64,000 bases of DNA from Acidobacteriaceae bacterium (GCA_027449545.1 DAIDLI010000138.1:7977-71976), one strand, 5' to 3'. Shown: positions 22,147 to 40,193, counted from the first letter of the stretch. Numbers and translations: made by a program. The notes: a model not told the origin generated them from the letters alone.

Positions 22147-22839
22147 AATGTTTCCTCGTGGCAGTGCTGGGGCCTGGAGAATTCAGCCCTCATCCACCCC
22201 GGAAGGCCAGGGGCCCTCACTTGCTCTTCGCTGCTGCCCGTCGCCGCCCGGTAATCCACTGCAAGGAAGAAAGCAGACGAAGGGCTCCACTACACAGACT
22301 AGATCGGCCTGAGAGACGAAGATATAACCTCTTCGCGCCAATCAAATAACAGAAACGGCATTCCGGCAAGGGAACACTGGTAACTGAAAGTAACATGCGG
22401 GGTAACGAAGGCCGAGTGGTCCTCCCCCGCTCCCCAGGGCGGCTGCTTCGCCGACGGACAGCACTGGCAGTGTAAGCTAGCCGCCGAGGAGAGCGGCTGG
22501 CGGGTCCGGATTTGGGGGTCTGCAGTCTGAATCCCCGCCGAACCGAACGGGTTCCGCTTTCCCTACCAGGAGGCACTGGCACTGTCAGAACAGGAGGGCA
22601 TCGATCCTGAGAAATTCGTTGCCTTTGCAAATTGTCGTTCAGCGTATGGCCTGAACCGGAATTTGTTCTTTACGGGGCTTTTCACGCCGCAAGGCCTACT
22701 CTGGCCCAGCAACTGGGGGTGCTCTTCTGAGAGGCTCACGGGCCCTGCTGGAGGCACAGCGTGCCGGCAGGGCCGCGCAAGAGTTCCGGCGTCGCTTTCG
22801 CAAGGAGCGAGAGGGACAGGCGCGGCGGTTATGCTGCTC

Positions 22840-24144
22840 CTACGGTTGCTGCGCCCAGAAGTCGCCGATCCAGTCCAGATTCTGCTCGTGATTGCCTGAG
22901 GAGTTCAGGACGCAGGTGGAATCACAGAAGAGCGGGTTCAGCACCCACGGCTGAATCGCATAGGGGCTATTGGGATTGCCGCTTGACAGAATATTTTTTC
23001 GATTCTGCACCATTGCATAGGTCGCAACGCTGAAATTGTTGCTACTGAAGAAGCTCTCCGATTGGGCCAAGAAGTTTTGGACGCCGTTTTGCGAGAGTGC
23101 GCGGTCGGTGAAATACGTCGGGTGCTCAGCATCGCCGAACTTGAGGAAGTCATACCACTCGGTATTCGGCACGCCTCCGGAGGTGATGGCGCAGTTGATG
23201 AATCCCAGCACAGACTCGCTGCCTGTCACATCGACGTAACATTGCCCCGGATCCGGATAGTCGGCGAGAAACGTCGAGCTCAGGCTGTCGCTCAGGTAAT
23301 TCTCAAAATAGTTAACGAGCGAGAACTCCGAACTCATCATCTTCTTCTTGGCTCCGAATACCGATTGGGCGTATTGAACAGCCGCCACGAGACCACCCGT
23401 CGGATCCGTTCCTTCCGCGCCGTTGTTCCCATTGAACGACGATACGTGGAGATGCAGGTCGATGCCGGTGACTCCGCTAGTGTTTGCGGCATACTGCATG
23501 AGTTCGTTGACCGGAGTGGTCTGGAAGCTGGCTTTCTCCAGATTGTTGAAGGCTCCCACGTAAAGCGGTATCGCGGACCCAGTAATGCTCTTGCCGGCAT
23601 TGGCATGGTTATAGGCGATGTCGCTGTTGGTGATGTTCTCGTAAAAAGTGGTGACAGCCTGCGAGGTGGGCGCATTGGTGATGAATGGCTCATTGCCGGA
23701 CACCAACTGGCTCAGGCTGGGATACACATAATCGAGCACCCTGTTGGTGCACGTTTGCAGGGTGGTGTACTCTGTGCTGCTCGTATCCGTCGGCGGTGTT
23801 CCTCCTCCCCACTCGCTGAAGTCATACTTCAAGTTCAGCGCGAGCCGATATTGCGAATAGCTTTTGTGGATCGTGTTGATCTCGGTCAGGTTGGGATCTG
23901 ACTGCACGGTGGAGACAGCACAAGTGCCATCTCGCTTCAGAAGCGCGGTGATGTCATAGAAGCCACGAATCCATGTCGTTTTGGAATTCGTTACATCGGT
24001 GATATTGAAGGCGGTGAAGGTGCCGTTGTAGTTGACGCCCATGGAGGTTTGGGCAGCAGCAGGTTGGGAGGGGATGGCGCATCCCAGCGTCATCAGCGCG
24101 CAGCCCAGTGCGACCGCGGAACTTGTCCGAAACAGAGCTCTCAT
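22840..24144 (-). CDS. Secreted uncharacterised glycoside-hydrolase-like TIM barrel (clan GH-A-like), paralog 1
   Basis: Signal peptide, GVNYNG, WIRGF, GNEPF, GIDLHLHV, SEFSLV. Start moved to ATG 24144 (GGAG RBS). Confidence 0.6.
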   Translation of the reverse strand: MRALFRTSSAVALGCALMTLGCAIPSQPAAAQTSMGVNYNGTFTAFNITDVTNSKTTWIRGFYDITALLKRDGTCAVSTVQSDPNLTEINTIHKSYSQYRLALNLKYDFSEWGGGTPPTDTSSTEYTTLQTCTNRVLDYVYPSLSQLVSGNEPFITNAPTSQAVTTFYENITNSDIAYNHANAGKSITGSAIPLYVGAFNNLEKASFQTTPVNELMQYAANTSGVTGIDLHLHVSSFNGNNGAEGTDPTGGLVAAVQYAQSVFGAKKKMMSSEFSLVNYFENYLSDSLSSTFLADYPDPGQCYVDVTGSESVLGFINCAITSGGVPNTEWYDFLKFGDAEHPTYFTDRALSQNGVQNFLAQSESFFSSNNFSVATYAMVQNRKNILSSGNPNSPYAIQPWVLNPLFCDSTCVLNSSGNHEQNLDWIGDFWAQQP

Positions 24145-24431
24145 ATGGCTTCTCCATTCAGAGGCGTAGAAACGCAAGGGTCTTCTTCGCCTCAGTGGTG
24201 GTGGTGTTGCATACACGTGGTGGCATGAAGTCTTGTGTGTTTTCTACAACTGCTGGTGGTGCTGCCCAACCAATCACTGTTTCCAGGAGCGGCGAGTTTT
24301 GCTCCGAGTTGTGCAGAGAAGCGGTGTTGCATCCTCAGCGGGGTCCGCGAGCAGCCAGGCGCAGGAAATGCTCACCCCAGGCGATTGCGCTCCCTACGGC
24401 GAAATATGAACAGATTCACAATGCCCCGGTG

Positions 24432-26042
24432 CTACGGAATATAAGGATTGGGCGGCGTCCCTCCGTGACGGTAAGGCGCGTACCAGTTGTGCTGGCTGGA
24501 CCATTTAGTGTGGTACTTGCGATTCTGGGGGCCGGTGGGCAGGCTGTCCTGCGAGCGAATCACCCACATGGCGAGTTCGGCCATTAACTGCGCCTGGATT
24601 TCTGCATGCTCGCGCTGTCCGAAGAGGTTCGTCAGTTCGCAGGGATCGCTGCGCAGGTTGTAAAGCTGGCCGTAACCCATCATGTCGTAGACGAGCTTCC
24701 ACTCGCCCATGCGCACCATCTTCTGAGATCCGCTCTGCGTGACTTCGTTTAACTCGTCCCAGGAGCCGGCGCGGCGCGGATCATGCGCAATCGAGGTGGG
24801 GATGTGGTCGGTATCCTCGTAGTAAAGACCGCCCAGCCCCGCGCTGGCGTAAATGCTGCGGAACTCCTCGCGGGGAAAATCCTGCCCCTGCAGCAGCGGC
24901 CAAAGGCTGCGGCCTTGCACGCCGTGCGGAATCTCGGCGCCCATGGCTTCACAGAAGGTGGGCATGAGGTCGGCCATGGAGGTAAAGACCTGCTCGACCG
25001 TTCGGGAGGGCTTCACTCCATAACCCCACCAGATCTGCGGCGTGTGGGTAAGGTCCTCATACAGCCCCACGCCCTTGCGGCCCAGACCATAATCCATCAC
25101 GTAATCGCCATGATCCGCTGTGAAGACGACCAGTGTCTTTCGAGCGAGGTTGCTCTTTTCCAGGTGACCATTCAGACGGGCGATCTGGTCGTCGATCATG
25201 CGCAGAGCACCGAGATAGTTGGAGACGTAGCGCCTCCACTTGTTTTCGGTGTCCGGGAAATGATCCTGCTGCAGCCGGTATTCCCAGCGCGCGCGCGGGC
25301 CCATGTTCTTGAGCGCTTCAGGCCCAGCGCAGCGTGGAGGAACCGCTTGGGGCGGGAACATGTTCCAATAGGGGGCCGGCACCTGCTCAGGATCGTGAGG
25401 CTCGGGAAAGCTCACCTGCAAGAGGAATGGCTGATCGCCGCTGCCGTCGATAAAGTCGATCGCTTCGGTGACGATACGGTATGGAATCTGCGTGCGAAGC
25501 GGATACGGGCTGGGCTCCTCGGCCATGTTGAAGTGCAAGTCCTTGAGCCACTCTTCGTAGGCCTTCACGTCAGGCGGCGCATCCGGAGGAATGTAACCGC
25601 CTTGGTGGGTGAACTCGCGCCACACGTCCACGTCAGCGGGCTTGAGATAGGTGTGATTCTTACCGGCGAGCCCGGTTCGATAGCCGCGGGCTTTTGCCAC
25701 CTGATACAAATCCTGCGAGAAGAACGCCTGATGCGCGTCGAGATTCATGCGCACGCGGGTGGCGTCGGGCCAACGGCCGGTCAGCATCGAAACGCGGCTG
25801 GGGACGCAGGCGGGCTGGGTGCAGTAGTTATGCTGAAAGCCGATGCCGCGCCCCTGCAAGCGATCGAGCGAGGGGCTTGTATCCAGAGGGTATCCGAGGG
25901 CTTTGCTCAGTCCATAGCGGCGCTGATCGGCAATGATGAAGATTAGGTTCGGCTTCTCGACCGTTTCCGCTGCCTGAGCGGGCGGGATCGCCTGCGACGC
26001 AATCGTTAATCCCGCCATCTTCACAAAATCCCGTCGCTGCAT
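24432..26042 (-). CDS. Tat-exported Cys-type sulfatase
   Basis: MQRRDFVK Tat motif, IIADQ, CVPSR(VSMLTG), FTADHG, GRKG. Confidence 0.92.
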   Translation of the reverse strand: MQRRDFVKMAGLTIASQAIPPAQAAETVEKPNLIFIIADQRRYGLSKALGYPLDTSPSLDRLQGRGIGFQHNYCTQPACVPSRVSMLTGRWPDATRVRMNLDAHQAFFSQDLYQVAKARGYRTGLAGKNHTYLKPADVDVWREFTHQGGYIPPDAPPDVKAYEEWLKDLHFNMAEEPSPYPLRTQIPYRIVTEAIDFIDGSGDQPFLLQVSFPEPHDPEQVPAPYWNMFPPQAVPPRCAGPEALKNMGPRARWEYRLQQDHFPDTENKWRRYVSNYLGALRMIDDQIARLNGHLEKSNLARKTLVVFTADHGDYVMDYGLGRKGVGLYEDLTHTPQIWWGYGVKPSRTVEQVFTSMADLMPTFCEAMGAEIPHGVQGRSLWPLLQGQDFPREEFRSIYASAGLGGLYYEDTDHIPTSIAHDPRRAGSWDELNEVTQSGSQKMVRMGEWKLVYDMMGYGQLYNLRSDPCELTNLFGQREHAEIQAQLMAELAMWVIRSQDSLPTGPQNRKYHTKWSSQHNWYAPYRHGGTPPNPYIP

Positions 26043-26066
26043 GCTTCTGCCTCCTCCCCGGATACA

Positions 26067-27209
26067 CTACTCGCGCGCAAGCTGATGAAAAGCTTGGAGC
26101 CAGTAGGGGTTCGTCGGAGCCGGAGCGCCAGGCGACTGGCGCACCGTGCGCCGGGCGTAAACACTGTTGAGAAGCCACGGGACCGATTTGGGACCGAATG
26201 GGTGGGTCATAGATCCACCCTGCTCAAAGCCGTAGGTCGCTACGGCGAGTTGCTGCGTATTCCGGAACAGCTTCAACTCGTCCTGGAGATACGACTTTTG
26301 TGCGGCAAACCAGGGACTGTTCTGAAGAAGGGCATTCCACTCTTCTTGGCCGTATGGCGCCTGGATGGCAGCGTTGATGGCCTGCCACATACGCGTGTCG
26401 GCGGGAACGCCATAACGCTTGGCGAAGGCTGCGGGGACGCGATCGTTCAGATGCGCCTTCCAGTACCAGACGAGGGAAAACTCGGTGACCAGAAACTGCT
26501 GATCCGGGCGGATACTCTTCACCGCATCTTGGACGAAAGGAACTGAATCCTGGAATGACGAGACATGGGGATGGAGATCTACGCCCTGAATCTCCGGGGT
26601 TGCTTTGACGAACGCGAACCAACGCTTGACCCAACGCTGCTGGCGCACTTGAGGGTCATTGAGCTTGTTCAACGCGCCCATAAAGATTTCTGTGGAACAG
26701 GGCGCACTGCAATGCTGCTGCCGGAAGGCGATCACCTCGTGGGCCATCGCTTCGTAAAACGGATTGAGGCGTGTGTCTCGCTGATCTTCCGGCGTCTCCC
26801 AGTAAGGCTCGTTGCCGATTTCCAGGATGTCGACTTTGCCCATCACGCGGGACAGAATTGCATTCAGGGTCGCCACTGTCTTCTCGTACCGAGGAGTTCC
26901 GGGCAGCGGCACTCCAGTTCGGCGGAAGTTCCATTTGAACGTCAGGATGACATGATATCCGCGTGCTTTGGCGTCGAGACTATCGGCAACGGCCGGAGCC
27001 GAATCAACATCCGCGCTCGTTTCGCGATTCAATGCGATGAAGCCGCGAATCCAATGAACCTCGGCATGATTCAGATCGGAGTAATGAATGTCTTGGTATT
27101 CCCCATTGAAGTTTGCGCCCAGCGCTCCGCTGACCGGCGCCGCATGAGCGCAGAGCGTGCCGGCGAAGAAGGCCAATGCCGCCCAGTTCCACCACTGCTT
27201 CGTTTTCAT
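26067..27209 (-). CDS. Secreted uncharacterised glycoside-hydrolase-like TIM barrel (clan GH-A-like), paralog 2
   Basis: Signal peptide, GANFNG, WIRGF, GNEPY, GVDLHPHV, TEFSLV. Confidence 0.6.
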   Translation of the reverse strand: MKTKQWWNWAALAFFAGTLCAHAAPVSGALGANFNGEYQDIHYSDLNHAEVHWIRGFIALNRETSADVDSAPAVADSLDAKARGYHVILTFKWNFRRTGVPLPGTPRYEKTVATLNAILSRVMGKVDILEIGNEPYWETPEDQRDTRLNPFYEAMAHEVIAFRQQHCSAPCSTEIFMGALNKLNDPQVRQQRWVKRWFAFVKATPEIQGVDLHPHVSSFQDSVPFVQDAVKSIRPDQQFLVTEFSLVWYWKAHLNDRVPAAFAKRYGVPADTRMWQAINAAIQAPYGQEEWNALLQNSPWFAAQKSYLQDELKLFRNTQQLAVATYGFEQGGSMTHPFGPKSVPWLLNSVYARRTVRQSPGAPAPTNPYWLQAFHQLARE

Positions 27210-27267
27210 CTCTGATTCGTCTCCAATCAAATCCCCGCGCAGTTGATCTACAAACGAAGATCGGTTG

Positions 27268-27298
27268 GCGCTGCCGCCAAGGCATCTTGCGGCAGCGC
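27268..27298. other. Intercistronic hairpin downstream of the TBDR gene
   Basis: GCGCTGCCGC(C)AAG-GCAT-CTTGCGGCAGCGC inverted repeat with no U-tract. Confidence 0.5.
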
Positions 27299-27313
27299 GA
27301 TGCGATTTCCAGT

Positions 27314-30300
27314 CTAGAAAAACACTTGCAGAGCGCCCTGCAATTCCCGCGGCGGCGGGGAGAGGATGGTATTGGTGATGTGGCCGAACAGAGGCGTGTT
27401 CATGGACGTGTCCGGCATATTGAAATGCGGCGTGTTGAAGAGGTTGAAGGCTTCTACTCGGAACTGTGCATGCCAGTTCTCATGGATCGGAAAATCTCTT
27501 TCCAAGCTGAAGTCAATGTTGTGGATGCCCGGGCCGCGCACTGCACCATCGGTGCGGCCGATATTGCCAAGGGTATAAGCGGCCGGGAGGCTGAATGCGC
27601 TGGTATTGAACCATTCATCCACCTTGTCTCCATTGGAGCGCGAGCCTGACAGGTGTGGTTCCACACCTGCCACCGCGTTGGGGCGGTTTCCAAGCCCGGT
27701 AACCGGGGCGAAGAATGCCAGCGGCCATCCGCTCTGCTCGATGACAATCGCCGATGCGTTCCAGCCGCTGACCAGGGCATTCGGGAGGCCATGAAGATTG
27801 CTGCCCACCAGTTGTCCGCGGCCAAAGGGAAGCTGCGCCACGACATTCGCAATCAGAGAGTTGGGCGTGTCAGTCTCCGAGAGAGACTTCTCCGCCGCGA
27901 GATCGTAGTAGTTTTGTACGTTGGTGGTATTCGAAGGGCCGATCGGAGCTTCAGCATTTTGCACGTTCGACAACCACTTGCTGTAGGTGTAGGCGAGGAG
28001 GAAGTCGACTCCGTGCGAAGTCCGCTTGTTCAGCTTGACCTGCAATGCCTGGTAGTTGGAACCACCCCAGGTGGAATTGATGATGGTAACGCCCGTGTAC
28101 TGCGGATAGGGACGCAGGAGCTGCTGCTGCGGGACTTTGGGCTGCGACAGCAATCCCACCTTCACATCGGATTGGAATGGATTCGCAACCGGCTGCTGGA
28201 GAGCCGTGCCCAGACTGAGATAGCTGGGGTTGAGTTGGTTCAGATCAAAGGGCGCAGTGAGGTGAATTCCGCGGGTGCCTACGTACGAAACATCCAGGAG
28301 CGTAGACCACGGGAACTGCCGCTGGACGCCCACATTCCATTCATAGGACTGGGGACTCTGCGGGTTATGATCCCAGAAGCTGATCGACTGACCGAGTTGG
28401 GTTCCGGCTCCGGCTGTGGAACCGGTGGGTTGAACCAGGCCGTTGGGATAGGGATTGCTCAGGAGATTGTACGGAGTGAGCCCGCCGTCCACCGAGGTCA
28501 CCCACGATGAGGTGGAGCTAAATCCCGTACTGGGGGCATAACCCACCGCGTTGTTGCTGATTTCGAGCGGGGCGTAAACAGTTCCGAAACCGCCGCGAAA
28601 CACGGTGGATTGATTCAAGGAATAGGAGAGCCCGACCCTGGGATCAAACTGAGCGGTATTCCACACGTAGACATTGCTCGGCTGACCATCGACGCCAGCA
28701 AAGATGAGGCCGCCGGTCAGGTTGGGAAACTGGCTGTTGGCTGCAGGACTCGGCATGGAGGGATCAAAGTAGTTGAGGCGGTTATGACGGTCGGTGTAGG
28801 GACTCTCCGTCTCGTACCGCAGGCCCGCATCGATGGTGAGCTTCGGAGTCACCTGGAAGGTGTCCTGAGCGTAGCCCGCAAAGTAGAAGTCCTTCAAGCT
28901 GTTGCCGGCGCTGATGGGAATCGAGCCGCCTGAACCGGCCCCCAGCAGCAGGCTGGCCATGGCGTCACCCGCCGTTGGGCTTACCGTCACTGGATTGGGG
29001 CCTTGGGTTGGGGCGCGCGTAAAGGAGTAGGTGCCGGAACTGGCAAGGGCATTAAAGATATTGATGAAGTGCATTCGAACATCTGTGCCCACGACGACGG
29101 TATGCCGTCCATGAATCCAGGTGAGCGAAGACAACAGCGCATGGGAGTCATTGCCGTTGGATAGATAACTTTGCCCCGACATGTTGCCGTACGCGACCAT
29201 CTGCAACGTGGGGAACATCGGTATCTGGATATTGCTGGTGAGGGAGGACGGGAAGCCAAGCGTTGCGCTGTTGAAGCCATAGCTCAGCGTCTGCCGAATC
29301 TGATACCAGCGCGCATAGCCGTAGTTGAGAGTGAAGAGCAGATTGGGGCTCAGGGTGAAGGTATTGTTCTGTGAGAACGACCAGTTGTCGAGCTTGGTGG
29401 TGCCGATGGCGCCCTGCCCAGGAGAGGCGAGGTTGCCGTAGGTGTTCGGCTGGGTTTGTGTCGTCAGCATCCAGCCCAGGCGCCCGAAGAGGCGGTAGGT
29501 GTCGTTCGCATATTCATCCAGTCGGGCGCTGCCTGCATTCTGGTTGAGGGTCAGAGGAGCGTTGCTGATGAAGTTGTTCGCATTTGTAAAGTTTGCCCCG
29601 GTTTTATTGGGCTGCGGATAGAACTTGATCAGGTTCTGCGCAACCGGATCCCATAGCGAAGAAGAAATCTTGTTGCCCTGGAACGCGGTGCGGATGTACT
29701 GCCCGGGATGATTCGGATCCGGCTGAGTCGAGAAGGGATTATAGATCGTAATTGGCTTGCCTGCCGCGTTCATCAGGCCGCTGAAGTCGCCTTGCCTCTC
29801 CGCAGCCGTAGGCACCGTGGTCTGAAAGGTTACGCCCTGGATGCGGCTGGTTCCCTGATAGGAGACAAAGAAGAAGGTCTTGTTGTGGCCGTTGTAGATC
29901 CGAGGGATGAGGACAGGGCCGCCCGCGGAAAAGCCATATTGATTCATTTTGAAGGGCGGAATGCTCAGGCCTGCGCCCTTGTTGAAGTATTCGTTGGCAT
30001 CGAGCGCCGAGTTGCGCAGAAATTCGAAGATGTTGCCGTGAAACTGATTGCTGCCCTGTTTGGTGGTGACATTGATGACGCCCCCCGCGAAGCGCCCATA
30101 TTCCGCGGGCAGGTTGTCGCTCTCGACCTTGAACTCCTGGGTGTCGTCGACGGTGGGGATGGTTGTGATCTGATCGAAGAAACCGGCGGTAGAGGGCACG
30201 CCATCGATGAGAAATTCGTTGCTTTGCGCCCGTTCGCCGTTAATGGACAGATTGGTATCGAAGGTCGTGTTCGACGGCACGTCACCAAAGATTCCGTTGG

Positions 30301-30913
30301 CGGCACGATTAAAGGTCACGCCAGGCGTTAATTGGATTAGACGGAAGGTGCTTCTGCCATTCAAGGCAAGGTTCGCGATGGTGTGCGCCGGAAGCACCTG
30401 ACCCACCGACGAAGTTTCAGTGTCGAGCAAGGGCGGTGCTCCGGAAACGGTAACCGTCTGCGCTGCCTGCCCTACCTGAAGAGCCATGTCGATGCGGGCG
30501 ACCTGCGACACCACCAGGGTGATGCCGCTCCGGACCGCGGTTTGAAAACCAGCCTTGGACACTTGCACTTCATAGTCGGCTCCTGGGGGCAGAAGAGGGA
30601 CCACATAGCCGCCTCGGGAATCGGTGTGCACGGAGATGTGGATGCCTCGCGAGGGCTCGGCAACCGTCACGCTGGCGCCGGGAATAATTGCTCCGGTGCC
30701 ATCGGAGATGATTCCGGTGATCTCCGCGGTCTGCTGCTGAGCACGCAGTGTGCCGCCCAATGCCAAGGTGAAGAGTGACACCATCAGCAGGCGAACGATG
30801 GCCCAAGCGAGCCGTGCAGATGCCGGATGCTCGGCTACGGGGATGGTTGTTCCGGCCGGGCAGTGTCTCACCGTGCGATTCGGATTGCCAGAGCGGATGA
30901 ATCGTGGATCCAT
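27314..30913 (-). CDS. TonB-dependent receptor-like protein (carboxypeptidase-regulatory N-domain + barrel)
   Basis: GIISDGTGAIIPGA N-domain, EFKVESDNLPAEYGR, C-terminal FRVEAFNLFNTPHF...ALQVFF. GGAGG RBS at ATG 30913. Confidence 0.9.
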   Translation of the reverse strand: MDPRFIRSGNPNRTVRHCPAGTTIPVAEHPASARLAWAIVRLLMVSLFTLALGGTLRAQQQTAEITGIISDGTGAIIPGASVTVAEPSRGIHISVHTDSRGGYVVPLLPPGADYEVQVSKAGFQTAVRSGITLVVSQVARIDMALQVGQAAQTVTVSGAPPLLDTETSSVGQVLPAHTIANLALNGRSTFRLIQLTPGVTFNRAANGIFGDVPSNTTFDTNLSINGERAQSNEFLIDGVPSTAGFFDQITTIPTVDDTQEFKVESDNLPAEYGRFAGGVINVTTKQGSNQFHGNIFEFLRNSALDANEYFNKGAGLSIPPFKMNQYGFSAGGPVLIPRIYNGHNKTFFFVSYQGTSRIQGVTFQTTVPTAAERQGDFSGLMNAAGKPITIYNPFSTQPDPNHPGQYIRTAFQGNKISSSLWDPVAQNLIKFYPQPNKTGANFTNANNFISNAPLTLNQNAGSARLDEYANDTYRLFGRLGWMLTTQTQPNTYGNLASPGQGAIGTTKLDNWSFSQNNTFTLSPNLLFTLNYGYARWYQIRQTLSYGFNSATLGFPSSLTSNIQIPMFPTLQMVAYGNMSGQSYLSNGNDSHALLSSLTWIHGRHTVVVGTDVRMHFINIFNALASSGTYSFTRAPTQGPNPVTVSPTAGDAMASLLLGAGSGGSIPISAGNSLKDFYFAGYAQDTFQVTPKLTIDAGLRYETESPYTDRHNRLNYFDPSMPSPAANSQFPNLTGGLIFAGVDGQPSNVYVWNTAQFDPRVGLSYSLNQSTVFRGGFGTVYAPLEISNNAVGYAPSTGFSSTSSWVTSVDGGLTPYNLLSNPYPNGLVQPTGSTAGAGTQLGQSISFWDHNPQSPQSYEWNVGVQRQFPWSTLLDVSYVGTRGIHLTAPFDLNQLNPSYLSLGTALQQPVANPFQSDVKVGLLSQPKVPQQQLLRPYPQYTGVTIINSTWGGSNYQALQVKLNKRTSHGVDFLLAYTYSKWLSNVQNAEAPIGPSNTTNVQNYYDLAAEKSLSETDTPNSLIANVVAQLPFGRGQLVGSNLHGLPNALVSGWNASAIVIEQSGWPLAFFAPVTGLGNRPNAVAGVEPHLSGSRSNGDKVDEWFNTSAFSLPAAYTLGNIGRTDGAVRGPGIHNIDFSLERDFPIHENWHAQFRVEAFNLFNTPHFNMPDTSMNTPLFGHITNTILSPPPRELQGALQVFF

Positions 30914-31068
30914 TGGTTCTGCCTCCTGAAAAGTAGTGCAATCGTCTACATGAGCAAGAATCCCTAGATGATTTCCCGCCCTTCGGGCCAGGAATCGCGA
31001 GATTCTCAATGTGAATGCGGCTACCAAGCCCGTCCAGACCGCTGGCTCGATGGGATTTTGAGTTGCTT

Positions 31069-31357: not shown

Positions 31358-31392
31358 GAATGGCGTCAGCATTCAGTGAAAGGACACGCAGC

Positions 31393-33096
31393 GTGGATCG
31401 TCGTACTTTTTTTGGCATTTCAGCAGGGGCGTTGTTCAGCGGCGCATTGCCCGGCAGCCCCTCCCCCGCCCAGGAAGCCGGCAAACGGCTGCGCTTTACC
31501 AACCAGAGAACCGGCCAGGGTCCGTTCCAGAACGCGGATCGTTCGCGTCCACCGCACATGCTGCTCATCAGCGCGGATATGGTTGGGCCCGATCTTTACC
31601 ATCCCTCGCGGCCCTTCTCCAGCCACGTGCAAATCCCTTCCATTCGCTCTCTGATGCAGGATGGGGTGTTCTTTTCGAACGCCTTCTGCACGGTGCCGCT
31701 TTGTTCTCCGTCCCGCGCCTCGTATTTGACCGGCCGGTACAGCTACGTGCAGGGCAACAGCGAACGCGCGCCCGAGGGCCTGGAAGCGGAACTTCGACCC
31801 GATGACACGATCTTCCCGGAATACCTGAAGGCCGCCGGCTATATTACCCGTCAGGTGGGCAAATGCCATGTAGGCGAGCAGAAATTCATCGACGCCTTCG
31901 GAGATAACGATCAGGCATGGAACCGCTGGTCGCCGCCGGTATTCGATGATGACGATTTCCTCGCCTACCAGCGCCGGATGGGGGTCAAGCCGCAGAAGTA
32001 CTCCCGGGAAATCGTCTTCAGCATGCAGGACCGCAAGACGCCGGGCAACTCAGTGGGCGGTTGGGTAGTGCAGGAGGATGGCAAACCTTTTCCGCTGGAA
32101 GCTCAGTACAGCTATTACCTAGGGCAAAAGGCCATTGCCACCCTTGAGAACCTGGTGGATAACGGGGACCTGGAGCACCAGCCGCTGTACCTGCAGCTCG
32201 ATATCTTCGATCCTCATCAACCCTTCTCGGTGCCGGCCGGGTTTGAGAAGCGGGAACGGGAACTGCGCAAGGTGATCACGGTTCCCGAGTCGTGGCAGGC
32301 TGCCAAGGAGCACAATTTCAAGCGTGCCCCCGGCGAGCCCGAGATCGTCGATATCTATCGCCGTTACTGGGGCATTTATGACCCGCAAAAGCTGATCGAT
32401 TATCGCGTGGCCTATGCGCTGCAGATGGAAGTAGTGGACCGGGTGATTGGCATGGTTCTGACCAAGCTTAAGGATCTCGGCCTGTACGATGACATGGTGA
32501 TCGCTTTTATCTCCGATCACGGCGAAATGAGCGGGCGGCGGGCGATTGTGGACAAGGGAGTGTACCTGTATCCCGATGTTGTCCGGGTTCCGTTCGTGCT
32601 TAAGCCACCTGCCCAGATGAAGCGGCCGCAGACGAAGATTGCATCTCCGGTCTCCCTGCTGGACGTGTCGCAGTCTCTGCTCGATTTCGCCGGCATTCAG
32701 GCAGAAGCGAAGTTCGATGGCGTATCGCTGGTGCCGGTCATCGCGTCCGGCCAGGGGACGGAAGAGCGCACGCTGTTGTTCTTCGGGGGATGGCACGTGG
32801 GCGTGAACTTCGACTGCGGGATCCAGCATCGCGCATCGGATGGCCGGCGGTATTTGTATTCCTACAATTGCACTTCGACTGTAGACGAACTCTTCGATCT
32901 GGACAGCGTCGATGCGGTCAATCTGGTCGGTGATCCGCGCTATGCCCAGGTGCACAATGAGATGATTCGCGTGCTGGGCGCTGCTCTCCAAGCGGATCCT
33001 CGGTGGATCGGATTCTGGTCGGAGTTCCGCCTGGCGCACTTCAACGACTTGCCCACCTCGGAAGGCGATATGCAGATGTTCGCGGTGTCGTCGTAG
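31393..33096 (+). CDS. Tat-exported Cys-type sulfatase
   Basis: GTG start, DRRTFFG Tat motif, ISADM, CSPSR(ASYLTG), GKCH, ISDHG, VDKG. Confidence 0.9.
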   Translation: MDRRTFFGISAGALFSGALPGSPSPAQEAGKRLRFTNQRTGQGPFQNADRSRPPHMLLISADMVGPDLYHPSRPFSSHVQIPSIRSLMQDGVFFSNAFCTVPLCSPSRASYLTGRYSYVQGNSERAPEGLEAELRPDDTIFPEYLKAAGYITRQVGKCHVGEQKFIDAFGDNDQAWNRWSPPVFDDDDFLAYQRRMGVKPQKYSREIVFSMQDRKTPGNSVGGWVVQEDGKPFPLEAQYSYYLGQKAIATLENLVDNGDLEHQPLYLQLDIFDPHQPFSVPAGFEKRERELRKVITVPESWQAAKEHNFKRAPGEPEIVDIYRRYWGIYDPQKLIDYRVAYALQMEVVDRVIGMVLTKLKDLGLYDDMVIAFISDHGEMSGRRAIVDKGVYLYPDVVRVPFVLKPPAQMKRPQTKIASPVSLLDVSQSLLDFAGIQAEAKFDGVSLVPVIASGQGTEERTLLFFGGWHVGVNFDCGIQHRASDGRRYLYSYNCTSTVDELFDLDSVDAVNLVGDPRYAQVHNEMIRVLGAALQADPRWIGFWSEFRLAHFNDLPTSEGDMQMFAVSS

Positions 33097-33240: not shown

Positions 33241-36200
33241 TCAGAACGACAGGGTCGCTGCGAGTTGAACGATGCGGGCGTCTTTCTGGGTGCTGGTTAC
33301 TTCACCAAAGGTACCGCTGGTCACGCCATTGCTGGGATTGGCAAACTGCGCATGGTTCCAAGCGTTGAAGAATTCGCCGCGCACGGCAAAGCGCATGTCT
33401 TCATGAATCGGAAAGTCCTTGTGGACCCCCATATCCCAGTTGTTGATTCCCGGACCCGTGAGGATATCGAAACCGGAGGTTCCGTAGTACCAGCTTTGGC
33501 CGCTGGTATTATGCGGGTCCGTAGCCGGGTTCACAAAGCAGGCCGAGTTCGCCGTGCTGTCGACGCCTGTAAAGATCCAGTACATGCCATTGGACCTGAG
33601 ATTCTTGTTCTGCAATTCGTTTCTTCCGTTGCAATAGCGGTCTGCCCGGATGTTGGCGGGCGACCAGTTGGTATTGTTGGGCGCACTTACCGAGAATGGA
33701 TTGCCCTTCTGCATGGTGGTGATTGCGTCTACGCTCCAGCCGCCGATCGCGCCGTCGAGGATGCGGTTCATCCCGGCGCCAATTCTCTTCCCCCGGCCGA
33801 CAGGAAGCTGCCATACGGCACTGACCACCAGCGACTGGGGAACGTTGGAGGTTGTCGGTCCCCAGTCACAGCGGAAGCAACTCTTGTCCTGATTCAGGGT
33901 TCCGATGCCGCCTTCCGCTCCGTCCGAGAGTGACTTCTGCCATGTGTAATTGGCCAGGACGCTCAGGCCATTGCTGAATTGCCGCTGGAATTTCACCAGC
34001 AAGGCGTTATAGCTGCCATTCGCGATGCTGTTGATCTCCTGCATATAGGAGTACTGCGGGTAGAAGGGGTTCTTCGTCAGGTCGTAGGTCTGCACTCCAG
34101 GCGAGGAGCCATCCCACGGATCCCAGTTCTTCTGCAGGTGGTGCGCTTCGTTGCCGATGTATGCGACATCCAGCAAGTAGGCGGTCGCAAAGGTGCGCTG
34201 CACGTCCAGGTTCCACTGCGATATCATGGGCGGCCGCATGTTGGATGCCAGGTACTGGACGGCGCCGCCGATGGTGGGCACCTCAGCCGCAGTGATGGCG
34301 CCTACGGCCACCGGTGGCATGGCATTGACTCCCATCACATAGGTCGGCGTTGGCTTGGAGGTGACGTTGCTGACCTGGTTGTTGACGGAGATGTACTGCG
34401 ACACCACGGCGTATTGGGATGTGAGGTCGTATTGGGTGGTGTAGTAGAGCCCCCATCCGGCGCGCAGAACCGTGTTTTTGAGAAGTGTGGGCTGCCAGGT
34501 GAAGCCCACGCGCGGAGCCACGCTGTTCAATGCCATCGAGAAGCTCTCAGGACTGGCGGTCCCCAAAGCTGCAAAGGTCTCGAGACCCGTGGTGAAATCA
34601 AAGCTGTGGATGAGATTACGATTCGTCTGGTCCGGAGGGTTGGGGGGCGTATTGATGAAATAGGCAAGGGCCAGGTTGGCGGTGAAGTGCTGGCTCAGCT
34701 TCCAGGTGTCTTGTATGTAGGGCTCAAATGTGGTCCAGCGGAAGTGCGTCCTGGGCATCGCAATGGACTGAGCATTGGTGAGATCGCCGAGGAGGAAGTC
34801 GGCAAAGGCACTGCCTGTGCCGGCCACCTGCGAAACCGTCCCGTTGGCATTCAGCTTGGTTTGCGCGGTATACACATCATTGAAGTTGAACACGCCCCGA
34901 GCGTTGGCGTTGGCACTGGACTGCACACTGCGGGTATAGGCGAGATCACCGCCGATTTTGATCTGGTGGTTTCCGTGCAGCCAGCTGAATCCTTCGTGGA
35001 CTTGGTAGACGTTGTCAATATCCCCCAGCAGACCGGTGGAGGTACCGAAACCCGAAAATCCTGCGATGTTGATGCCGGGCACTCCATTCGCGTCGCCCGT
35101 GCCCGTGATTCCGAGTTGCGTTTGGACACCCGCAATCGAGCTTCCCTGGGAGTACACCGAGTCTCGTACAATGCCAGCGTTCAGCGAATTCACTTTGGTC
35201 GGGCTCAGCGTCCAAGTCCAGCCCACAGTGCCAAACTCCGTGTCGAGCGGATAGGCGATGCCTTGCGCGGGAAACAATCCAGGAGAACTCCCCGGCGAAT
35301 TGAGCCACGAACCCTGCCCGAAGAGTTGATTGTTGGCGTTGATGCTGGCGTCCAGCCGGATGGTGAACTGATCGGAGTCGAGGGTGGCTTCCGGGTTCCC
35401 GCTCACGTTGTTGCCTGCCCCCAGGGTCGAACCGGGAAGATAGTAGGCCAGCAGGCCGCTTGCGGTTTTGTTGATTCGATCGGCGGGAATTTTGTTTTCA
35501 GGAAACTGCTGGCGAAGTCCGGTGCTAGGGTCGTATGTCGCCGGATCATAAATCGGGGTCGAAAGAGCAGAAAAGTCACCGGAGAACATCGCAGCGGTAG
35601 GCGTGTACGCTGAGCGGTAGCTCGATTGAGTCTGGCGGTATCCTTCGTAATTCCCAAAGTAGAAGAGCTTGTTCTTCATAATCGGGCCGCCGAGGCTGAT
35701 GCCGAACTGGTTCTGGTGATAAGGTCCGTTCGGGGTGGTGGCAAAGTAGTTGCGCGCTTCCATCTGGTTGTTGCGGACATACTCGTAGAGATCGCCGTGA
35801 ATGCTGTTGGTTCCTCCTTTGGTGATCACGTCGATGATGCCCGGGTTTGTTCCCATATCCGGCATGAAGAAGCCGTAGTGCACTTCAAACTGATCGATTG
35901 CGTCCATGGAGAGGTTCAGCGATGTATTGCCGGCGCGCGATCCGACCGTCTGGATGCCGTCGATGAGGTACATGGTGAAGTCCGGCTCGTTGCCGCTGAT
36001 ATTGATCGACATGCCGGGATGGCCCGTCTGCCCAACAGCACCGGCGGCGGCGCCCGCGTTGGTCTGGGTGGCGCCGGAAAGCAGCCCCAACTGTAGGAAG
36101 TTTCTGCCGTTGAGGGGCAGTTGCTGCACGCTTTGCGGCCCGATAACATTGCCGAGATCGTTGGATTGCGTCTCCAGCAGGTTGGCCAGACCATGCGCCT

Positions 36201-36570
36201 CCACGGTGACGGTCTGCGCGGCTTGCGCGATATTCAGAGATGCGTTCTCCGTAGCGTGTTGTCCAACAATAATGTTGAATCCAGTAACCTTGTAGGTGGC
36301 AAATCCCTGCTTGGAGACCTCGAGGGAATATACACCTGGCTGTACGGCAGGAAACGAATAGTTTCCCGAGACGTCCGACAGGGTCTTTATCCGAACACCT
36401 GTTTTGTCGTTGATAAGGATTACATCCGCAGCCGGCAAAACGGCTCCGGACGCGTCCGCGACTGTCCCCTGGATGGATGAATTAACGCTTTGCGCCCGGG
36501 CAAGGGATAGGGTGAATGCCAGGAGCACGATTGCGGGAAAGACCGTGAAGAATCGCGCCTTTCGAGTCAT
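33241..36570 (-). CDS. TonB-dependent receptor-like protein
   Basis: Signal peptide, GTVADASGAVLPAA, LPLNGRNFLQL, C-terminal RGEFFNAWNHAQF...AATLSF. Confidence 0.9.
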   Translation of the reverse strand: MTRKARFFTVFPAIVLLAFTLSLARAQSVNSSIQGTVADASGAVLPAADVILINDKTGVRIKTLSDVSGNYSFPAVQPGVYSLEVSKQGFATYKVTGFNIIVGQHATENASLNIAQAAQTVTVEAHGLANLLETQSNDLGNVIGPQSVQQLPLNGRNFLQLGLLSGATQTNAGAAAGAVGQTGHPGMSINISGNEPDFTMYLIDGIQTVGSRAGNTSLNLSMDAIDQFEVHYGFFMPDMGTNPGIIDVITKGGTNSIHGDLYEYVRNNQMEARNYFATTPNGPYHQNQFGISLGGPIMKNKLFYFGNYEGYRQTQSSYRSAYTPTAAMFSGDFSALSTPIYDPATYDPSTGLRQQFPENKIPADRINKTASGLLAYYLPGSTLGAGNNVSGNPEATLDSDQFTIRLDASINANNQLFGQGSWLNSPGSSPGLFPAQGIAYPLDTEFGTVGWTWTLSPTKVNSLNAGIVRDSVYSQGSSIAGVQTQLGITGTGDANGVPGINIAGFSGFGTSTGLLGDIDNVYQVHEGFSWLHGNHQIKIGGDLAYTRSVQSSANANARGVFNFNDVYTAQTKLNANGTVSQVAGTGSAFADFLLGDLTNAQSIAMPRTHFRWTTFEPYIQDTWKLSQHFTANLALAYFINTPPNPPDQTNRNLIHSFDFTTGLETFAALGTASPESFSMALNSVAPRVGFTWQPTLLKNTVLRAGWGLYYTTQYDLTSQYAVVSQYISVNNQVSNVTSKPTPTYVMGVNAMPPVAVGAITAAEVPTIGGAVQYLASNMRPPMISQWNLDVQRTFATAYLLDVAYIGNEAHHLQKNWDPWDGSSPGVQTYDLTKNPFYPQYSYMQEINSIANGSYNALLVKFQRQFSNGLSVLANYTWQKSLSDGAEGGIGTLNQDKSCFRCDWGPTTSNVPQSLVVSAVWQLPVGRGKRIGAGMNRILDGAIGGWSVDAITTMQKGNPFSVSAPNNTNWSPANIRADRYCNGRNELQNKNLRSNGMYWIFTGVDSTANSACFVNPATDPHNTSGQSWYYGTSGFDILTGPGINNWDMGVHKDFPIHEDMRFAVRGEFFNAWNHAQFANPSNGVTSGTFGEVTSTQKDARIVQLAATLSF

Positions 36571-36650
36571 TTTCTTTGGATCCTCCAATCAAATTGAGCC
36601 CGTACACGTCGCTCGCGCAGAGCGGAACGAAGACGCGTACTATGCGGATG

Positions 36651-36849: not shown

Positions 36850-38928
36850 TTAGTGGACAGGCACGCGGATCACCGTCACACTCTCATGAGGCAAGGTCAT
36901 AGTGAGTAGACCGGCTGATGGTGCAGGAAGCGTGACCGGCTGGGGCACAACGTGCTCCGGTTCGACCTCGTCGTTGCGCTCGTAGCGGTTGGCGGCTTTG
37001 ATTTGTTCGGCATGGGATGGGCCGGATGGATGCAATTGTCCGAGATCGAAACGGGTGGGCACATCCTGGTCGAGGCTGCGATTGACGCAGAGCAGGGTCA
37101 GAGTGCGACCGTCCGCGCTGCGCGTGGCAACAACATCGATGTACGGAATATTCTGCACATCGTTCAGGGGACTGACACCACCGGCAACGTTGTAGCTGCC
37201 GGAATCGCTGGCAACCGGCAGCACCGTGTCCCCTTTCACTGCCGTGTACATCTTGAAGACATAGTATGCGGGAACTGCATAGACCTGTCCGCGCCGCTCC
37301 CAGATACCGGCGAATTCCATGAGGCCCGTCATATCCGTGATCTTGACCTGTTCCGTATGGCGCAGAATGGTGTTGAGAAAGCCGGCGGCCAGCACCGCTC
37401 CGCCTTCATTCATCCAGCTCGGGCTTTCGTTGGTGAAATTGCGCTCGCCGTATCCCCGGCTGTTGAAGAGCCACTCGGTGACCGCGAAGTGCACTTTACC
37501 GCGCAGCGCCGGGTGTGAGTCGACCTGCTCCTGGACCTTATCGAAGTACGGCCCCACAGCGTACGGCACAGCATACGCCGCGGCGGCGACGAAGGCGGGC
37601 GTGGCCGGCGTCATCACGGGGTGGTTCACGTTGCGGATGAAATGGAGCGAAAGATAGTTGAAGGTGCCGGGGGGATCGGTCAACTGTGCGGCATTCCATC
37701 TTCCGTTGGTGATGGGACCAAGGCCGGTGGCAATGATCGGCGCATTGGGATCGATCGCGCGGACAGCCTTGCTGAAGGCCAGTGTCTTGGCAGCGATTTC
37801 ATCCACGGTGGGATAGCCCACCTGCCATTTGCCCCAGAGTTCGTTGCCAAGTTCATAGATCACCGGCCCGTGGTCATGCTCGCCGATGTAGCGGACCCAG
37901 TCAGCAGCTTCCTGTGGCGTTCCGCTGCCCATGTTCAGATCAAACTGGGGGGTAGCGCCGATGAGCTTGCAGAGTTCCAGGAACTCATCCGTGCCGAACT
38001 GGTTGTACTCGGGAATGCCCCAGGCAATGTTCTTCATGGTGATGCGCTTGTCGATAGGGCCAATGCCGTCGCGCCAGTGGTAATACGAACTGAAGTTCCC
38101 TCCAAAGCGCAATTCGGTTGCGTGCATTGCCTTGGCCATGGCCACAGCGTCGGGATCGAGAACGCCGATGGCATCCGCAGGCATCAGCGAAAGTTCGTCC
38201 ACATCGACACGCTCGGTGCCGGCAACGGCCACCGCAAAATCCACCGGCTGCAGGCGGCGCACCTCGCCGGGTTGCAGTTGCAAAGTGGCAGTATATTTCG
38301 TCCATTTGTCTGCGCCGGCGTCTACGCTGCCCTCGGCCAGTGTCTTGCCGTTTTCAGGATCGCGCAACAGCACCTTCACCTGCGAAGCTCCACCCACATG
38401 CTTGGCATAGAACGAGACATGGTAGGTCAGCTCGCGCTGCACGGGCAGATAGACACGCTGCATGATGCCGACCTGTTGGCCTGGCGTTCCCATGATCTCC
38501 AGAGACTGCCAGCTATTCGCGGCGTCTCCCGCATGCAATTCATAGCGATTGCCTGCGGCGGAATTCAGTGGCTGCCAGGGTAGGGGAATCCCTGTTGCGT
38601 TCGAGGACTCGATCAGTTCCGGCTGATCGCGGAACATCTTCTCCAAATTCGTATGGTTCCACAGGCCGGCTTCCAGGCTGCCGTTGGTAAGAATTTCTGC
38701 GACGATGCCATGGTTGATGGAATCGCCAATGGGTTCAAGAAAGGTTCCGAAGACGGTGGCCGGGATACGCTCAGTTCCGTGGTCGCTGACGCGCACTGTC
38801 ACGACCGGCGGCATGGGCTTGGCTACGGTAATTTGCCCCGGAGCAACCGAGGCGGCAACGAGGAAGATGGCCAGCACCAGCAGAGGGAAGCGGTAGATAT
38901 TGAAACGGGCGAGACGGCGCAGAGACAT
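36850..38928 (-). CDS. Secreted alpha-L-arabinofuranosidase-like GH51 enzyme
   Basis: FGTFLEPIG, RFGGNF..YHWRDGIGP, FGTDEFL, LGNELWG (acid/base), TEW (nucleophile). Start at ATG 38928 (GAAGGA RBS). Confidence 0.88.
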   Translation of the reverse strand: MSLRRLARFNIYRFPLLVLAIFLVAASVAPGQITVAKPMPPVVTVRVSDHGTERIPATVFGTFLEPIGDSINHGIVAEILTNGSLEAGLWNHTNLEKMFRDQPELIESSNATGIPLPWQPLNSAAGNRYELHAGDAANSWQSLEIMGTPGQQVGIMQRVYLPVQRELTYHVSFYAKHVGGASQVKVLLRDPENGKTLAEGSVDAGADKWTKYTATLQLQPGEVRRLQPVDFAVAVAGTERVDVDELSLMPADAIGVLDPDAVAMAKAMHATELRFGGNFSSYYHWRDGIGPIDKRITMKNIAWGIPEYNQFGTDEFLELCKLIGATPQFDLNMGSGTPQEAADWVRYIGEHDHGPVIYELGNELWGKWQVGYPTVDEIAAKTLAFSKAVRAIDPNAPIIATGLGPITNGRWNAAQLTDPPGTFNYLSLHFIRNVNHPVMTPATPAFVAAAAYAVPYAVGPYFDKVQEQVDSHPALRGKVHFAVTEWLFNSRGYGERNFTNESPSWMNEGGAVLAAGFLNTILRHTEQVKITDMTGLMEFAGIWERRGQVYAVPAYYVFKMYTAVKGDTVLPVASDSGSYNVAGGVSPLNDVQNIPYIDVVATRSADGRTLTLLCVNRSLDQDVPTRFDLGQLHPSGPSHAEQIKAANRYERNDEVEPEHVVPQPVTLPAPSAGLLTMTLPHESVTVIRVPVH

Positions 38929-39026
38929 GGAACTTCCTTCCGAACCAGCGATCTTCGCTGAAGTTCTGTCCTCATTCATGGGCGGCCGGAACCTGGCAGG
39001 ATGCTTCGGTTCATCGGGCGCACCTA

Positions 39027-39078
39027 TGTAAACGATTGCATCACCGGCAAGAGTAATTTTCGCTTTTGCCCTTGTCAA
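39027..39078 (-). promoter_or_regulatory. Sigma70-type promoter plus LacI-type operator for GH51
   Basis: Minus strand TTGACA (39078-73), N17, TACTCT (39055-50). Operator TGTAA-ACGA-TTGCA at 39027-39040. Confidence 0.65.
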
Positions 39079-39182
39079 GTCCTGCAGGGTTGCCACAACG
39101 GCCTTGCCGCTACCGCCGCTTCCGAATTCGGCTAAGGGCGGCTAAGGTATGCGCCGAGCAGCCGGAGGTATCCGCTCCGGCC

Positions 39183-40193
39183 TCAGCGGCGGCGCCGCCG
39201 GGCCGGACTGGCCGTTGATTCCCGGATCACGAGATGGGGATGCAGGATAAGTTCAGGGAGAGCGTTTCCCTCCTGGAGTGCATTCTGCAGCAAGGCAAAA
39301 GCGCGCGCGGCGAGTTCCCGGCGGGGATGGCGGATAGTGGTCAGGGGCGGAGAAACCATCGACGCAATGGGCAGATCATCGAAGCCGATCAGGGAAATAT
39401 CTTCGGGAACCCGAATGCCAGCCTCATGAGCTGCCTGTAACGCACCCACCGCCATCAGATCATTGGTAGCGAGCACTGCGGTAGGGCGCGGACTGCGCGC
39501 CAGCAGCTCACGCATGGCGCTCCGGCCGCCCTCTACGTGCATGTCTCCGGCAACGATCCGTTCCGGGCCTAGATGCACCCCATGCGCCTGCGATACGGTC
39601 TTGAAAGCAGCTTTGCGGTCTTGAGCCGAGCTGAGCTGTGGCGGCCCGGCAATAAACCCGAAGTCGCGGTGCCCCAGAAAGAGGAGATGGTCCATCGCTT
39701 CGCGGTAGCCGGTCGCGTACTCGACCAGCACATTCGGATATCTGGCCGCGAGCTGGCGCTGGTTCATGAGCACGATGGGAACGCCCAGCTTCATTGGCTG
39801 GCGTAAGAACCGTTCGTCGATCTCCGAGGTCATGATGGCGATCGCATCGACCCGCCGCTCGATCATCCTCCGAATACAGCTATCCAGGCGCTCCAATTCA
39901 TAATTGGTGTGCGTGAAAATGACGCCGATTCCATGGGCCGCCGCGAGCGATTCAAATGCATCGATCAACTCCGGGAAGAAGGGATTATTCACATCGGAGA
40001 TGATCAGACCGAACAAGCGAGTGCGCCCCACGCGCAGGCTGCGCGCGCTGGAATTGGGGACATAATTCATTTCTTCGATGGCCTTGCGGACCCGCGCCAT
40101 CGTACGCTCGCTTACTCGAGGAAAGCCATTCATTACCCGCGAGACGGTCGCTGTCGAAACGCCTGCGCGCTTGGCAACCTGCAGAATGTCCAT
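39183..40193 (-). CDS. LacI-family transcriptional regulator
   Basis: ILQVAKRAGVSTATVSRV HTH, YVPN, NPFFPEL, IGFDD, PPLTTI. Confidence 0.95.
   Translation of the reverse strand: MDILQVAKRAGVSTATVSRVMNGFPRVSERTMARVRKAIEEMNYVPNSSARSLRVGRTRLFGLIISDVNNPFFPELIDAFESLAAAHGIGVIFTHTNYELERLDSCIRRMIERRVDAIAIMTSEIDERFLRQPMKLGVPIVLMNQRQLAARYPNVLVEYATGYREAMDHLLFLGHRDFGFIAGPPQLSSAQDRKAAFKTVSQAHGVHLGPERIVAGDMHVEGGRSAMRELLARSPRPTAVLATNDLMAVGALQAAHEAGIRVPEDISLIGFDDLPIASMVSPPLTTIRHPRRELAARAFALLQNALQEGNALPELILHPHLVIRESTASPARRRRR

Follow-up and report, generated by a model that had tools for sequence, protein, structure and literature searches.

A 64,000-nucleotide stretch of DNA from an Acidobacteriaceae bacterium (GCA_027449545.1 DAIDLI010000138.1:7977-71976; referred to here as the window, with positions counted from its first letter) carries two genes for paralogous proteins, P0124 and P0004, on either side of a gene for an S1 sulfatase. 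We consider it likely, on predicted structures and genomic context, that both proteins are exported retaining glycoside hydrolases (GHs) of a small, unclassified family of clan GH-A (the 4/7 superfamily), which would work with the sulfatase on a sulfated glycan that probably contains arabinose and/or galactose. We computed the paralogy, the export signals, the fold, the placement and invariance of two glutamates, and the linkage and fusion of family members to sulfatases and GH43 enzymes.

The three genes are consecutive on the minus strand (22.8-27.3 kb), behind a TonB-dependent receptor gene (clades A and B are the two deep clades of the family tree described below):

22840..24144, minus strand: P0124, clade-A paralogue, 434 amino acids (aa); open reading frame (ORF) translation, exact database entry
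24432..26042, minus strand: S1 formylglycine-dependent sulfatase, 536 aa; PF00884, C-V-P-S-R, Tat signal
26067..27209, minus strand: P0004, clade-B paralogue, 380 aa; ORF translation, exact database entry

Two exported paralogues on either side of a sulfatase

P0124 is encoded in the ORF 22840..24216 (minus strand), whose likeliest start is the ATG at 24144 with a GGAG upstream, and P0004 in the ORF 26067..27230 (minus strand), whose likeliest start is the ATG at 27209, likewise after a GGAG; the chosen starts agree with the database entries. The two proteins align end to end with 24% identity over approx. 420 columns (BLASTP, E = 5e-25), a similarity far beyond chance, and are paralogues. Eight motifs occur in both proteins in identical order, i.e., G[VA]N[YF]NG, WIRGF, GNEP[FY], GA[FL]N.L, G[IV]DLH.HV, [ST]EFSLV, VATY and PW.LN, just as the original prediction, made from the sequence alone, had described; its placement of the two genes around a sulfatase also holds, with both ORFs where it put them and the S1 sulfatase gene between.

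Both P0004 and P0124 carry N-terminal Sec signal peptides, directly followed by strand 1 of the barrel in the models described below, so that the two are predicted to be secreted, as had been proposed. Nearly all relatives also carry Sec signal peptides, and some distant relatives have lipoboxes. Cleavage of P0004 is placed between AHA and A, and that of P0124 probably falls between AAA and QTS. An alternative assignment of P0124 as a lipoprotein (MTLGC) was dropped, as close orthologues lack that Cys and share the cleavage site A-x-A followed by QT.

The sulfatase matches PF00884 (2.6e-44) and SGSH_C (3e-12) as well as S1 sulfatases of the PDB (E down to 2.5e-37), and contains the formylglycine motif A-C-V-P-S-R (C-x-P-x-R) and an RRDFVK Tat signal. 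Its start, preceded by a GGAGGAGG ribosome-binding site, lies 24 bp past the P0004 stop. Orthologues with 58-84% identity were found in an Acidobacteriota metagenome-assembled genome (MAG), a Sphingomonas MAG and Novosphingobium loci.

The spacing of the genes is uneven, with a non-coding spacer of approx. 290 bp (24145-24431) between the sulfatase stop and the P0124 start as against the 24-bp gap between P0004 and the sulfatase. P0124 may have its own promoter; a consensus scan of the 24145-24431 spacer found no sigma-70-like site. Close to its 3' end, the TonB-dependent receptor gene that precedes P0004 contains a hairpin with a 7-bp stem followed by a T-run (27326-27343, minus strand), which could attenuate read-through into the glycosidase-sulfatase genes.

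Predicted fold and active site

AlphaFold2 models built on the family alignments were of high confidence for both P0004 (predicted local distance difference test, pLDDT, 92.4; predicted template modelling score, pTM, 0.89) and P0124 (pLDDT 90.2; pTM 0.88). Both models are (beta/alpha)8 barrels with eight strand-helix units. The strands of P0004 and the invariant residues on or directly after them are:

Strand 1, residues 29-33: G31
Strand 2, residues 53-59: R55, F57
Strand 3, residues 86-92: K92
Strand 4, residues 128-131: G132-N133-E134-P135, directly after
Strand 5, residues 174-180: G178
Strand 6, residues 207-212: H213, H215, directly after
Strand 7, residues 238-242: E243, S245, directly after
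Strand 8, residues 321-327: Y326

A further invariant residue, W345, is positioned after strand 8. The codons of the predicted catalytic residues are found at:

26808..26813, minus strand: N133-E134 of P0004 (GNEP), predicted acid/base
26481..26483, minus strand: E243 of P0004 (TEFS), predicted nucleophile
23689..23694, minus strand: N151-E152 of P0124 (GNEP), predicted acid/base
23326..23328, minus strand: E273 of P0124 (SEFS), predicted nucleophile

In the P0124 model, GNEP (residues 150-153) directly follows strand 4 (146-149) and E273 lies within strand 7 (268-275). Alignments of 61 and 64 sequences, which include both clades, show no variation in G-N-E-P, H.H and E.S. An Asn-Glu pair after strand 4 together with a Glu after strand 7 defines the 4/7 superfamily, i.e., clan GH-A.

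Foldseek searches against the PDB gave matches with E values of 1e-6 to 1e-4, template modelling (TM) scores of 0.38-0.53 and identities of up to 16%. For P0004, the matches listed were almost all GH-A enzymes (GH10, PslG/GH39, GH35, GH53, GH2; probability 1.00, E 2e-6 to 7e-5, identity 8-16%), and for P0124, the matches listed included GH5 and GH1 (both with probability 1.00), PslG, GH10, GH30 and GH17 as well as GH18 chitinases. The nearest solved GH-A folds are GH10 xylanases (7ezo, 3ro8, 8bbi), the GH39 enzyme PslG (5bx9, 4zn2, 9g17), a GH35 beta-galactosidase (4d1i, 8pej), a GH53 galactanase (7osk) and GH5 (8d89, 2jep). The family resembles clan GH-A in its predicted barrel, in the Asn-Glu after strand 4 and the Glu at strand 7, in the conserved Arg, His, Tyr and Trp on or just after strands, and in being exported and encoded in glycan-catabolic loci. 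It departs from the clan in that a Lys replaces the usual His of strand 3, in the DLH.H motif after strand 6, in a helical insertion of approx. 77 residues between strands 7 and 8 (longer in P0124), and in the lack of detectable sequence similarity, with TM scores confined to the range given above; the insertion probably explains part of the structural distance. The suggestion that the two proteins are GH-A-like is borne out by the high-confidence barrel models, the NEP Glu after strand 4, the E(F/Y)S Glu at strand 7 and the GH-A neighbours, and the Foldseek comparison proposed along with it returned remote GH-A neighbours only (TM up to 0.53), with no strong match to an established GH family in Pfam or the PDB.

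Family size and sequence identity

P0004 and P0124 matched no model in Pfam-A or NCBIfam. When the 61 aligned relatives were compared with Pfam-A at E up to 1, no GH family was found, the only matches being weak and unrelated (E of 0.025 or worse); PF00150 (GH5) in particular matched none of the 61. No relevant match was found among PDB sequences by phmmer or with a 61-sequence profile (E up to 10), and the single match, at 0.048 to a fly fibronectin-like fragment, was set aside as spurious. GH10, GH39, GH35 and GH53 showed no sequence similarity to the family via Pfam or PDB sequences. Since no sequence-profile bridge was obtained, homology with GH-A rests on predicted structure and motif placement.

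An HMMER profile search of 1.84 billion representative proteins returned 392 proteins at E 1e-3 and 174 at 1e-30. As only 392 proteins were returned at E 1e-3, no large GH family lies within profile reach; by these searches, the family appears to be small and to stand apart from the large GH families. A pattern scan covering 185,579 species, with one genome each, found relatives at 153 sites, and 79 loci were kept, mainly from Sphingomonadales, Steroidobacter, Micromonospora, Nonomuraea, Streptomyces, Saccharopolyspora and Pseudonocardia, with a few from Hyphomicrobiales. Members are typically single-domain proteins of approx. 350 residues, and homologues are present in cultured strains. In public databases they are mostly named 'hypothetical protein', and a literature search for the family, its accessions and its loci brought up no paper. 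The family was taken to be unnamed in the original prediction, and by Pfam-A, NCBIfam and PDB sequences, with CAZy/dbCAN models outside the comparison, it is indeed unclassified.

P0004 and P0124 could instead be distant members of an established CAZy family, either a divergent GH5, GH39 or GH128 (PF11790) or a recent family without a Pfam model or structure. PslG (GH39), GH10 and GH5 are among the best fold matches, and a few UniProt entries bear the automatic names 'Asl1-like glycosyl hydrolase catalytic domain-containing protein' or 'Cellulase (Glycosyl hydrolase family 5)', which would fit such a placement. Yet hmmscan of 65 members against Pfam-A found no GH family, even for the four proteins so named at E up to 10; PF00150 did not match P0097, the protein named as a GH5 cellulase, and PF11790 matched none of P0069, P0073 and P0105, which carry the 'Asl1-like' name, at the same threshold, nor any other member (0 of 65). 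PF11790/GH128 proteins are small GH-A barrels; no GH128 structure was among the 50 best fold matches of the P0004 or P0124 model. Together with the empty NCBIfam and PDB sequence searches, the small number of proteins within profile reach and TM scores no higher than 0.53 to every solved structure listed, these results make membership in an established family rather unlikely.

Genomic neighbourhood of family members

The ORFs of the window and of 83 fetched loci were grouped into clusters, of which the conserved ones were annotated; distances were counted for 89 family genes (the window plus 78 loci). The conserved neighbours were:

S1 sulfatase: 45 loci (91 gene copies)
GH43: 34 loci
TonB-dependent receptor: 29 loci
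GFO/IDH dehydrogenase: 16 loci
Formylglycine-generating enzyme: 14 loci
ILVD/EDD dehydratase: 11 loci

A sulfatase gene lies within 100 bp of 33 of the 89 family genes and within 10 kb of 51, and a GH43 gene within 100 bp of 24 and within 10 kb of 40; single loci carry up to five sulfatases, and members with both sulfatase and GH43 genes beside them occur in five bacterial lineages. Adjacency to sulfatases is recurrent in Acidobacteriota, Sphingomonadales, Steroidobacter, Catenovulum, actinomycetes and Bacteroides, with sulfatases within 100 bp of members in Acidobacteriota, Sphingomonadales and Niveispirillum and further sulfatase neighbours in the Nonomuraea, Catenovulum and Bacteroides loci. 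In a maximum-likelihood tree, a deep split separates clade A, of the P0124 type, from clade B, of the P0004 type, and A+B pairs recur in Acidobacteriota, Sphingomonas, Sphingopyxis and Steroidobacter. On this tree, sulfatase adjacency is near-universal in a Gram-negative subclade of 41 rows and present in Micromonospora, Nonomuraea and some Streptomyces, while most Streptomyces, Pseudonocardiales and rhizobial copies have no sulfatase and no conserved neighbours, being surrounded by unrelated housekeeping genes. A single co-evolving sulfatase partner was rejected, the family-adjacent sulfatases falling into several S1 groups with 23-25% identity to the window enzyme.

The nearest relative of the locus, in an Acidobacteriota MAG, has the identical order GH51, sulfatase, TonB-dependent receptor, clade-B member, sulfatase, clade-A member. 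In Sphingopyxis fribergensis, the order is sulfatase, TonB-dependent receptor, sulfatase, member, sulfatase, member and GH43; a carbohydrate esterase comes next, together with a dehydrogenase-lactonase-dehydratase-epimerase set of the kind usual in oxidative pentose/hexose catabolism. The Nonomuraea locus reads GH2, GH51, ABC, LacI, member, sulfatase, ABC, LacI, GH43, and a plasmid of the algal isolate Catenovulum adriaticum carries GH43, arylsulfatase, a hypothetical gene, TonB-dependent receptor, a hypothetical gene and a member, with a sulfatase and GH43 further along. A SusC/D locus of Bacteroides finegoldii has the order sulfatase, member, hypothetical, DUF1735, GH43, SusC, SusD; its protein (WP_055279005) is a true member (hhalign probability 99.9%, E 1e-34) that retains GNEP, LHVH and TEFS.

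The nearest PDB relatives of the GH43 partners are, weakly, of arabinofuranosidase/arabinanase types, and the partners do not belong to the exo-beta-1,3-galactanase subfamily (GH43_24) that had been considered for them. The GH43 partner of Sphingomonadales (L001 11119-13026; L034 11049-13001) is a protein of approx. 640 aa that has no close solved relative, with the GH43 domain in its C-terminal half and a second weak GH43-like match (PDB 3kst, 4qqs) in its N-terminal half; in Sphingopyxis, there is a 4-bp overlap between the GH43 gene and the stop of the family gene. Pantoea sp. BAV 3049 (L003 / L060) has a lone family gene, closest to the sphingomonad copies, among the housekeeping genes recQ, pldA and corA, which resembles a one-off horizontal acquisition. 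The Silvibacterium homologue has an unannotated neighbour of 433 aa; considered as a third paralogue, this protein proved unrelated.

The recurrence of sulfatases beside family genes across lineages, and the fusions of family members with sulfatase and GH43 described below, favor the earlier proposal that P0004 and P0124 work with sulfatases on an imported glycan, as far as gene context can indicate. The two proteins might instead be pictured as glycosidases for a non-sulfated glycan, such as plant arabinan, arabinogalactan or a xylan backbone, with the sulfatases serving another substrate or sulfur scavenging: approx. 40% of family genes have no sulfatase nearby, GH43 and GH51 partners act on ordinary plant arabinans, and the GH51 of the window is a common acidobacterial gene. 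In a genome with approx. 10 sulfatases, one would lie within 10 kb of a random gene in only a few percent of cases. The 33 of 89 family genes with a sulfatase within 100 bp, the up to five sulfatases per locus, the formylglycine-generating enzyme in 14 loci and the existence of a sulfatase-member fusion protein therefore leave a non-sulfated substrate quite improbable.

Fusion proteins

Several family members are part of larger proteins. P0301 (1092 aa), encoded by one continuous gene on a MAG contig, joins a sulfatase to a member, and P0243 joins a member to GH43; other architectures combine a member with Laminin_G_3, RicinB or a type IX secretion system sorting tail, or with a dockerin. The metagenomic protein P0285 (1914 aa) consists of a PL6-type chondroitinase-B/beta-helix domain, Ig-like and fn3 domains and a member at residues 1175-1536; here, a lyase and a putative hydrolase would act on a single anionic polymer. 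The aligned fusions P0301 and P0243 retain the acid/base N-E (GNEP in P0301, NEV in P0243), H.H and the nucleophile Glu, and in their domain make-up the multi-domain members resemble catalytic modules of carbohydrate-active enzymes (CAZymes). We regard the fusions as supportive, not decisive.

That the proteins are non-catalytic glycan-binding barrels (pseudo-enzymes), or TIM-barrel enzymes of another chemistry such as a transglycosylase or esterase, is highly improbable. In favor of this reading, the family has no activity on record, the P0124 fold matches include the non-catalytic chitinase-like lectin YKL-39, and lipoproteins occur among the distant members, as they do among the surface glycan-binding proteins of polysaccharide utilization loci (PULs). 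Against it, both glutamates and the preceding Asn, which pseudo-enzymes typically lose, are invariant over two deep clades, N-E and the nucleophile Glu persist in P0301 and P0243, and it is typically catalytic CAZyme modules that are fused to lectin-type modules and secretion tails.

Proposed function and substrate

For P0004 and P0124 as GH-A hydrolases, we infer hydrolytic activity with retaining stereochemistry, a substrate and a sequence of steps. First, a sulfated glycan, or oligosaccharides from it, would be imported via the adjacent TonB-dependent receptors, and the Tat-exported sulfatase and a second sulfatase (31360-33096) would strip sulfate esters in the periplasm. P0004 and P0124 would be active in the periplasm or at the cell surface, alongside the sulfatase encoded between them, and would cut the exposed linkages by retaining double displacement, by analogy with characterised GH-A enzymes, with E134 (P0004) and E152 (P0124) as the predicted acid/base and E243 and E273 as the respective predicted nucleophiles. 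The GH51 enzyme here, and GH43 in other bacteria, would trim arabinofuranosyl or similar side groups. As the deeply separated clades A and B repeatedly co-occur, the two paralogues probably have different, complementary linkage specificities.

In the models, the invariant basic residues R55, K92, H213 and H215 around the putative site would suit an anionic substrate. Because the partner enzymes point there, the substrate is most likely a sulfated polymer containing arabinose and/or galactose, such as a sulfated arabinogalactan or arabinan from algae or plants, or a sulfated exopolysaccharide of microbial origin. The natural fusion with a sulfatase raises the possibility that the family acts only in obligatory tandem with a sulfatase; it might also act directly on sulfated residues.

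Several observations weigh against this proposal. Likeness to solved GH-A structures is moderate only (TM 0.38-0.53, root-mean-square deviation 6-10 A, identity up to 16%), P0124 has GH18 chitinases, members of another clan, among its matches, and an hhalign comparison of the family profile with a purpose-built GH51 profile, itself of low diversity, was not significant (probability 0.3%). The adjacent sulfatases are spread over several S1 subfamilies and do not form a single co-evolving partner. Each fusion architecture is known from one or two metagenomic contigs, no measured activity is on record for any member, and the literature search gave no paper on the family. The approx. 40% of family genes that lack a sulfatase or a conserved neighbour are mostly those of Streptomyces and Pseudonocardiales; on account of these genes, sulfated substrates may be a clade-specific specialisation. 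The strengths of the proposal are the breadth of linkage to sulfatases and GH43, the fusions, and the occurrence of members in strains that are in culture and tractable, one of these members in the PUL of a gut Bacteroides.

Glycosidases most often have just this fold and mechanism. If the proposed activity is real, the family would be a new glycoside hydrolase family of clan GH-A, and a function would be assigned to a 'hypothetical protein' in loci of gut Bacteroides, algae-associated Catenovulum, Sphingopyxis, soil actinomycetes and Acidobacteria. More tentatively, and with some doubt on our part, P0004 and P0124 may be founding members of an unrecognised GH family in which the branches from Gram-negative bacteria and Bacteroides have specialised in the linkages of sulfated arabinose/galactose glycans. 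The combination of member, sulfatase and GH43 across phyla would then represent an unrecognised route to sulfated plant, algal and microbial polysaccharides, used by soil, mine-drainage, freshwater and gut bacteria, and the pool they draw on would belong to the ester sulfates of soil organic sulfur, a fraction that is poorly characterised. Because the family is tightly linked with sulfatases, with GH43 (GH51 here and in Nonomuraea) and, at 14 loci, with the enzyme that matures sulfatases, it would offer a handle on the sulfated glycans eaten by non-marine bacteria.

Comparison with a characterised sulfated-glycan system

The closest characterised system is the apparatus of Bacteroides plebeius for sulfated arabinogalactan-protein (AGP), i.e., PUL5/PUL13 with the BpS1_8 sulfatase and a GH43_24 exo-beta-1,3-galactanase (PMC8406133). 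There, a periplasmic S1_8 sulfatase is needed before GH43 can cut; the substrate carries its sulfate on galactan and arabinose residues, and sulfated AGP occurs in a green alga and in red wine (PMC8406133). So far, this one study is the main tie between sulfated arabinogalactan-type polymers and bacterial catabolism, and its main text makes no mention of the family described here (PMC8406133). Both systems combine S1 sulfatases with GH43 enzymes in a locus for TonB-dependent import. Unlike in B. plebeius, the GH43 partners of the present family are nearer to arabinofuranosidase/arabinanase types than to GH43_24, and the hosts are soil, mine-drainage and freshwater bacteria.

Other features of the locus

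The remaining genes of the locus extend from the TonB-dependent receptor upstream of P0004 to a LacI-family regulator:

27314..31027, minus strand: TonB-dependent receptor (CarboxypepD_reg + Plug + OMP_b-brl_4), directly upstream of P0004 in the same orientation
31360..33096, plus strand: second S1 sulfatase, 578 aa, divergently transcribed
33241..36588, minus strand: second TonB-dependent receptor
36850..39096, minus strand: GH51 alpha-L-arabinofuranosidase homologue with a CBM4_9 module (Pfam; PDB GH51 match E 1e-40)
39183..40193, minus strand: LacI-family regulator, head of the locus

In the nearest MAG locus (L005), the receptor gene 27314..31027 is syntenic and the second sulfatase has an ortholog with 83% identity in the equivalent position. 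The second receptor (33241-36588) is missing from this otherwise colinear locus and therefore represents a recent insertion or loss. Relatives of the GH51 protein with 72-86% identity are widespread in Acidobacteria. No gene for a formylglycine-generating enzyme was found in the window.

The G+C content is 0.574-0.604 across the sulfatase/glycosidase locus (window 22000-40000) as compared to 0.63-0.67 in the preceding 12-22 kb, and in the family tree the acidobacterial clade-B protein is nested among Sphingomonas and Stakelama MAG sequences with 100% support in the Shimodaira-Hasegawa-like approximate likelihood ratio test (SH-aLRT). The G+C contrast and this nesting suggest that the module moved horizontally between Sphingomonadales and Acidobacteriota. 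The stretch is present in mine-drainage, groundwater and soil metagenomes, all of them DNA sequencing runs. Just past the LacI regulator, 42026-44209 (minus strand) encodes a 727-aa protein with a PF10091 'putative glucoamylase' domain, which may be part of a neighbouring glucan locus.

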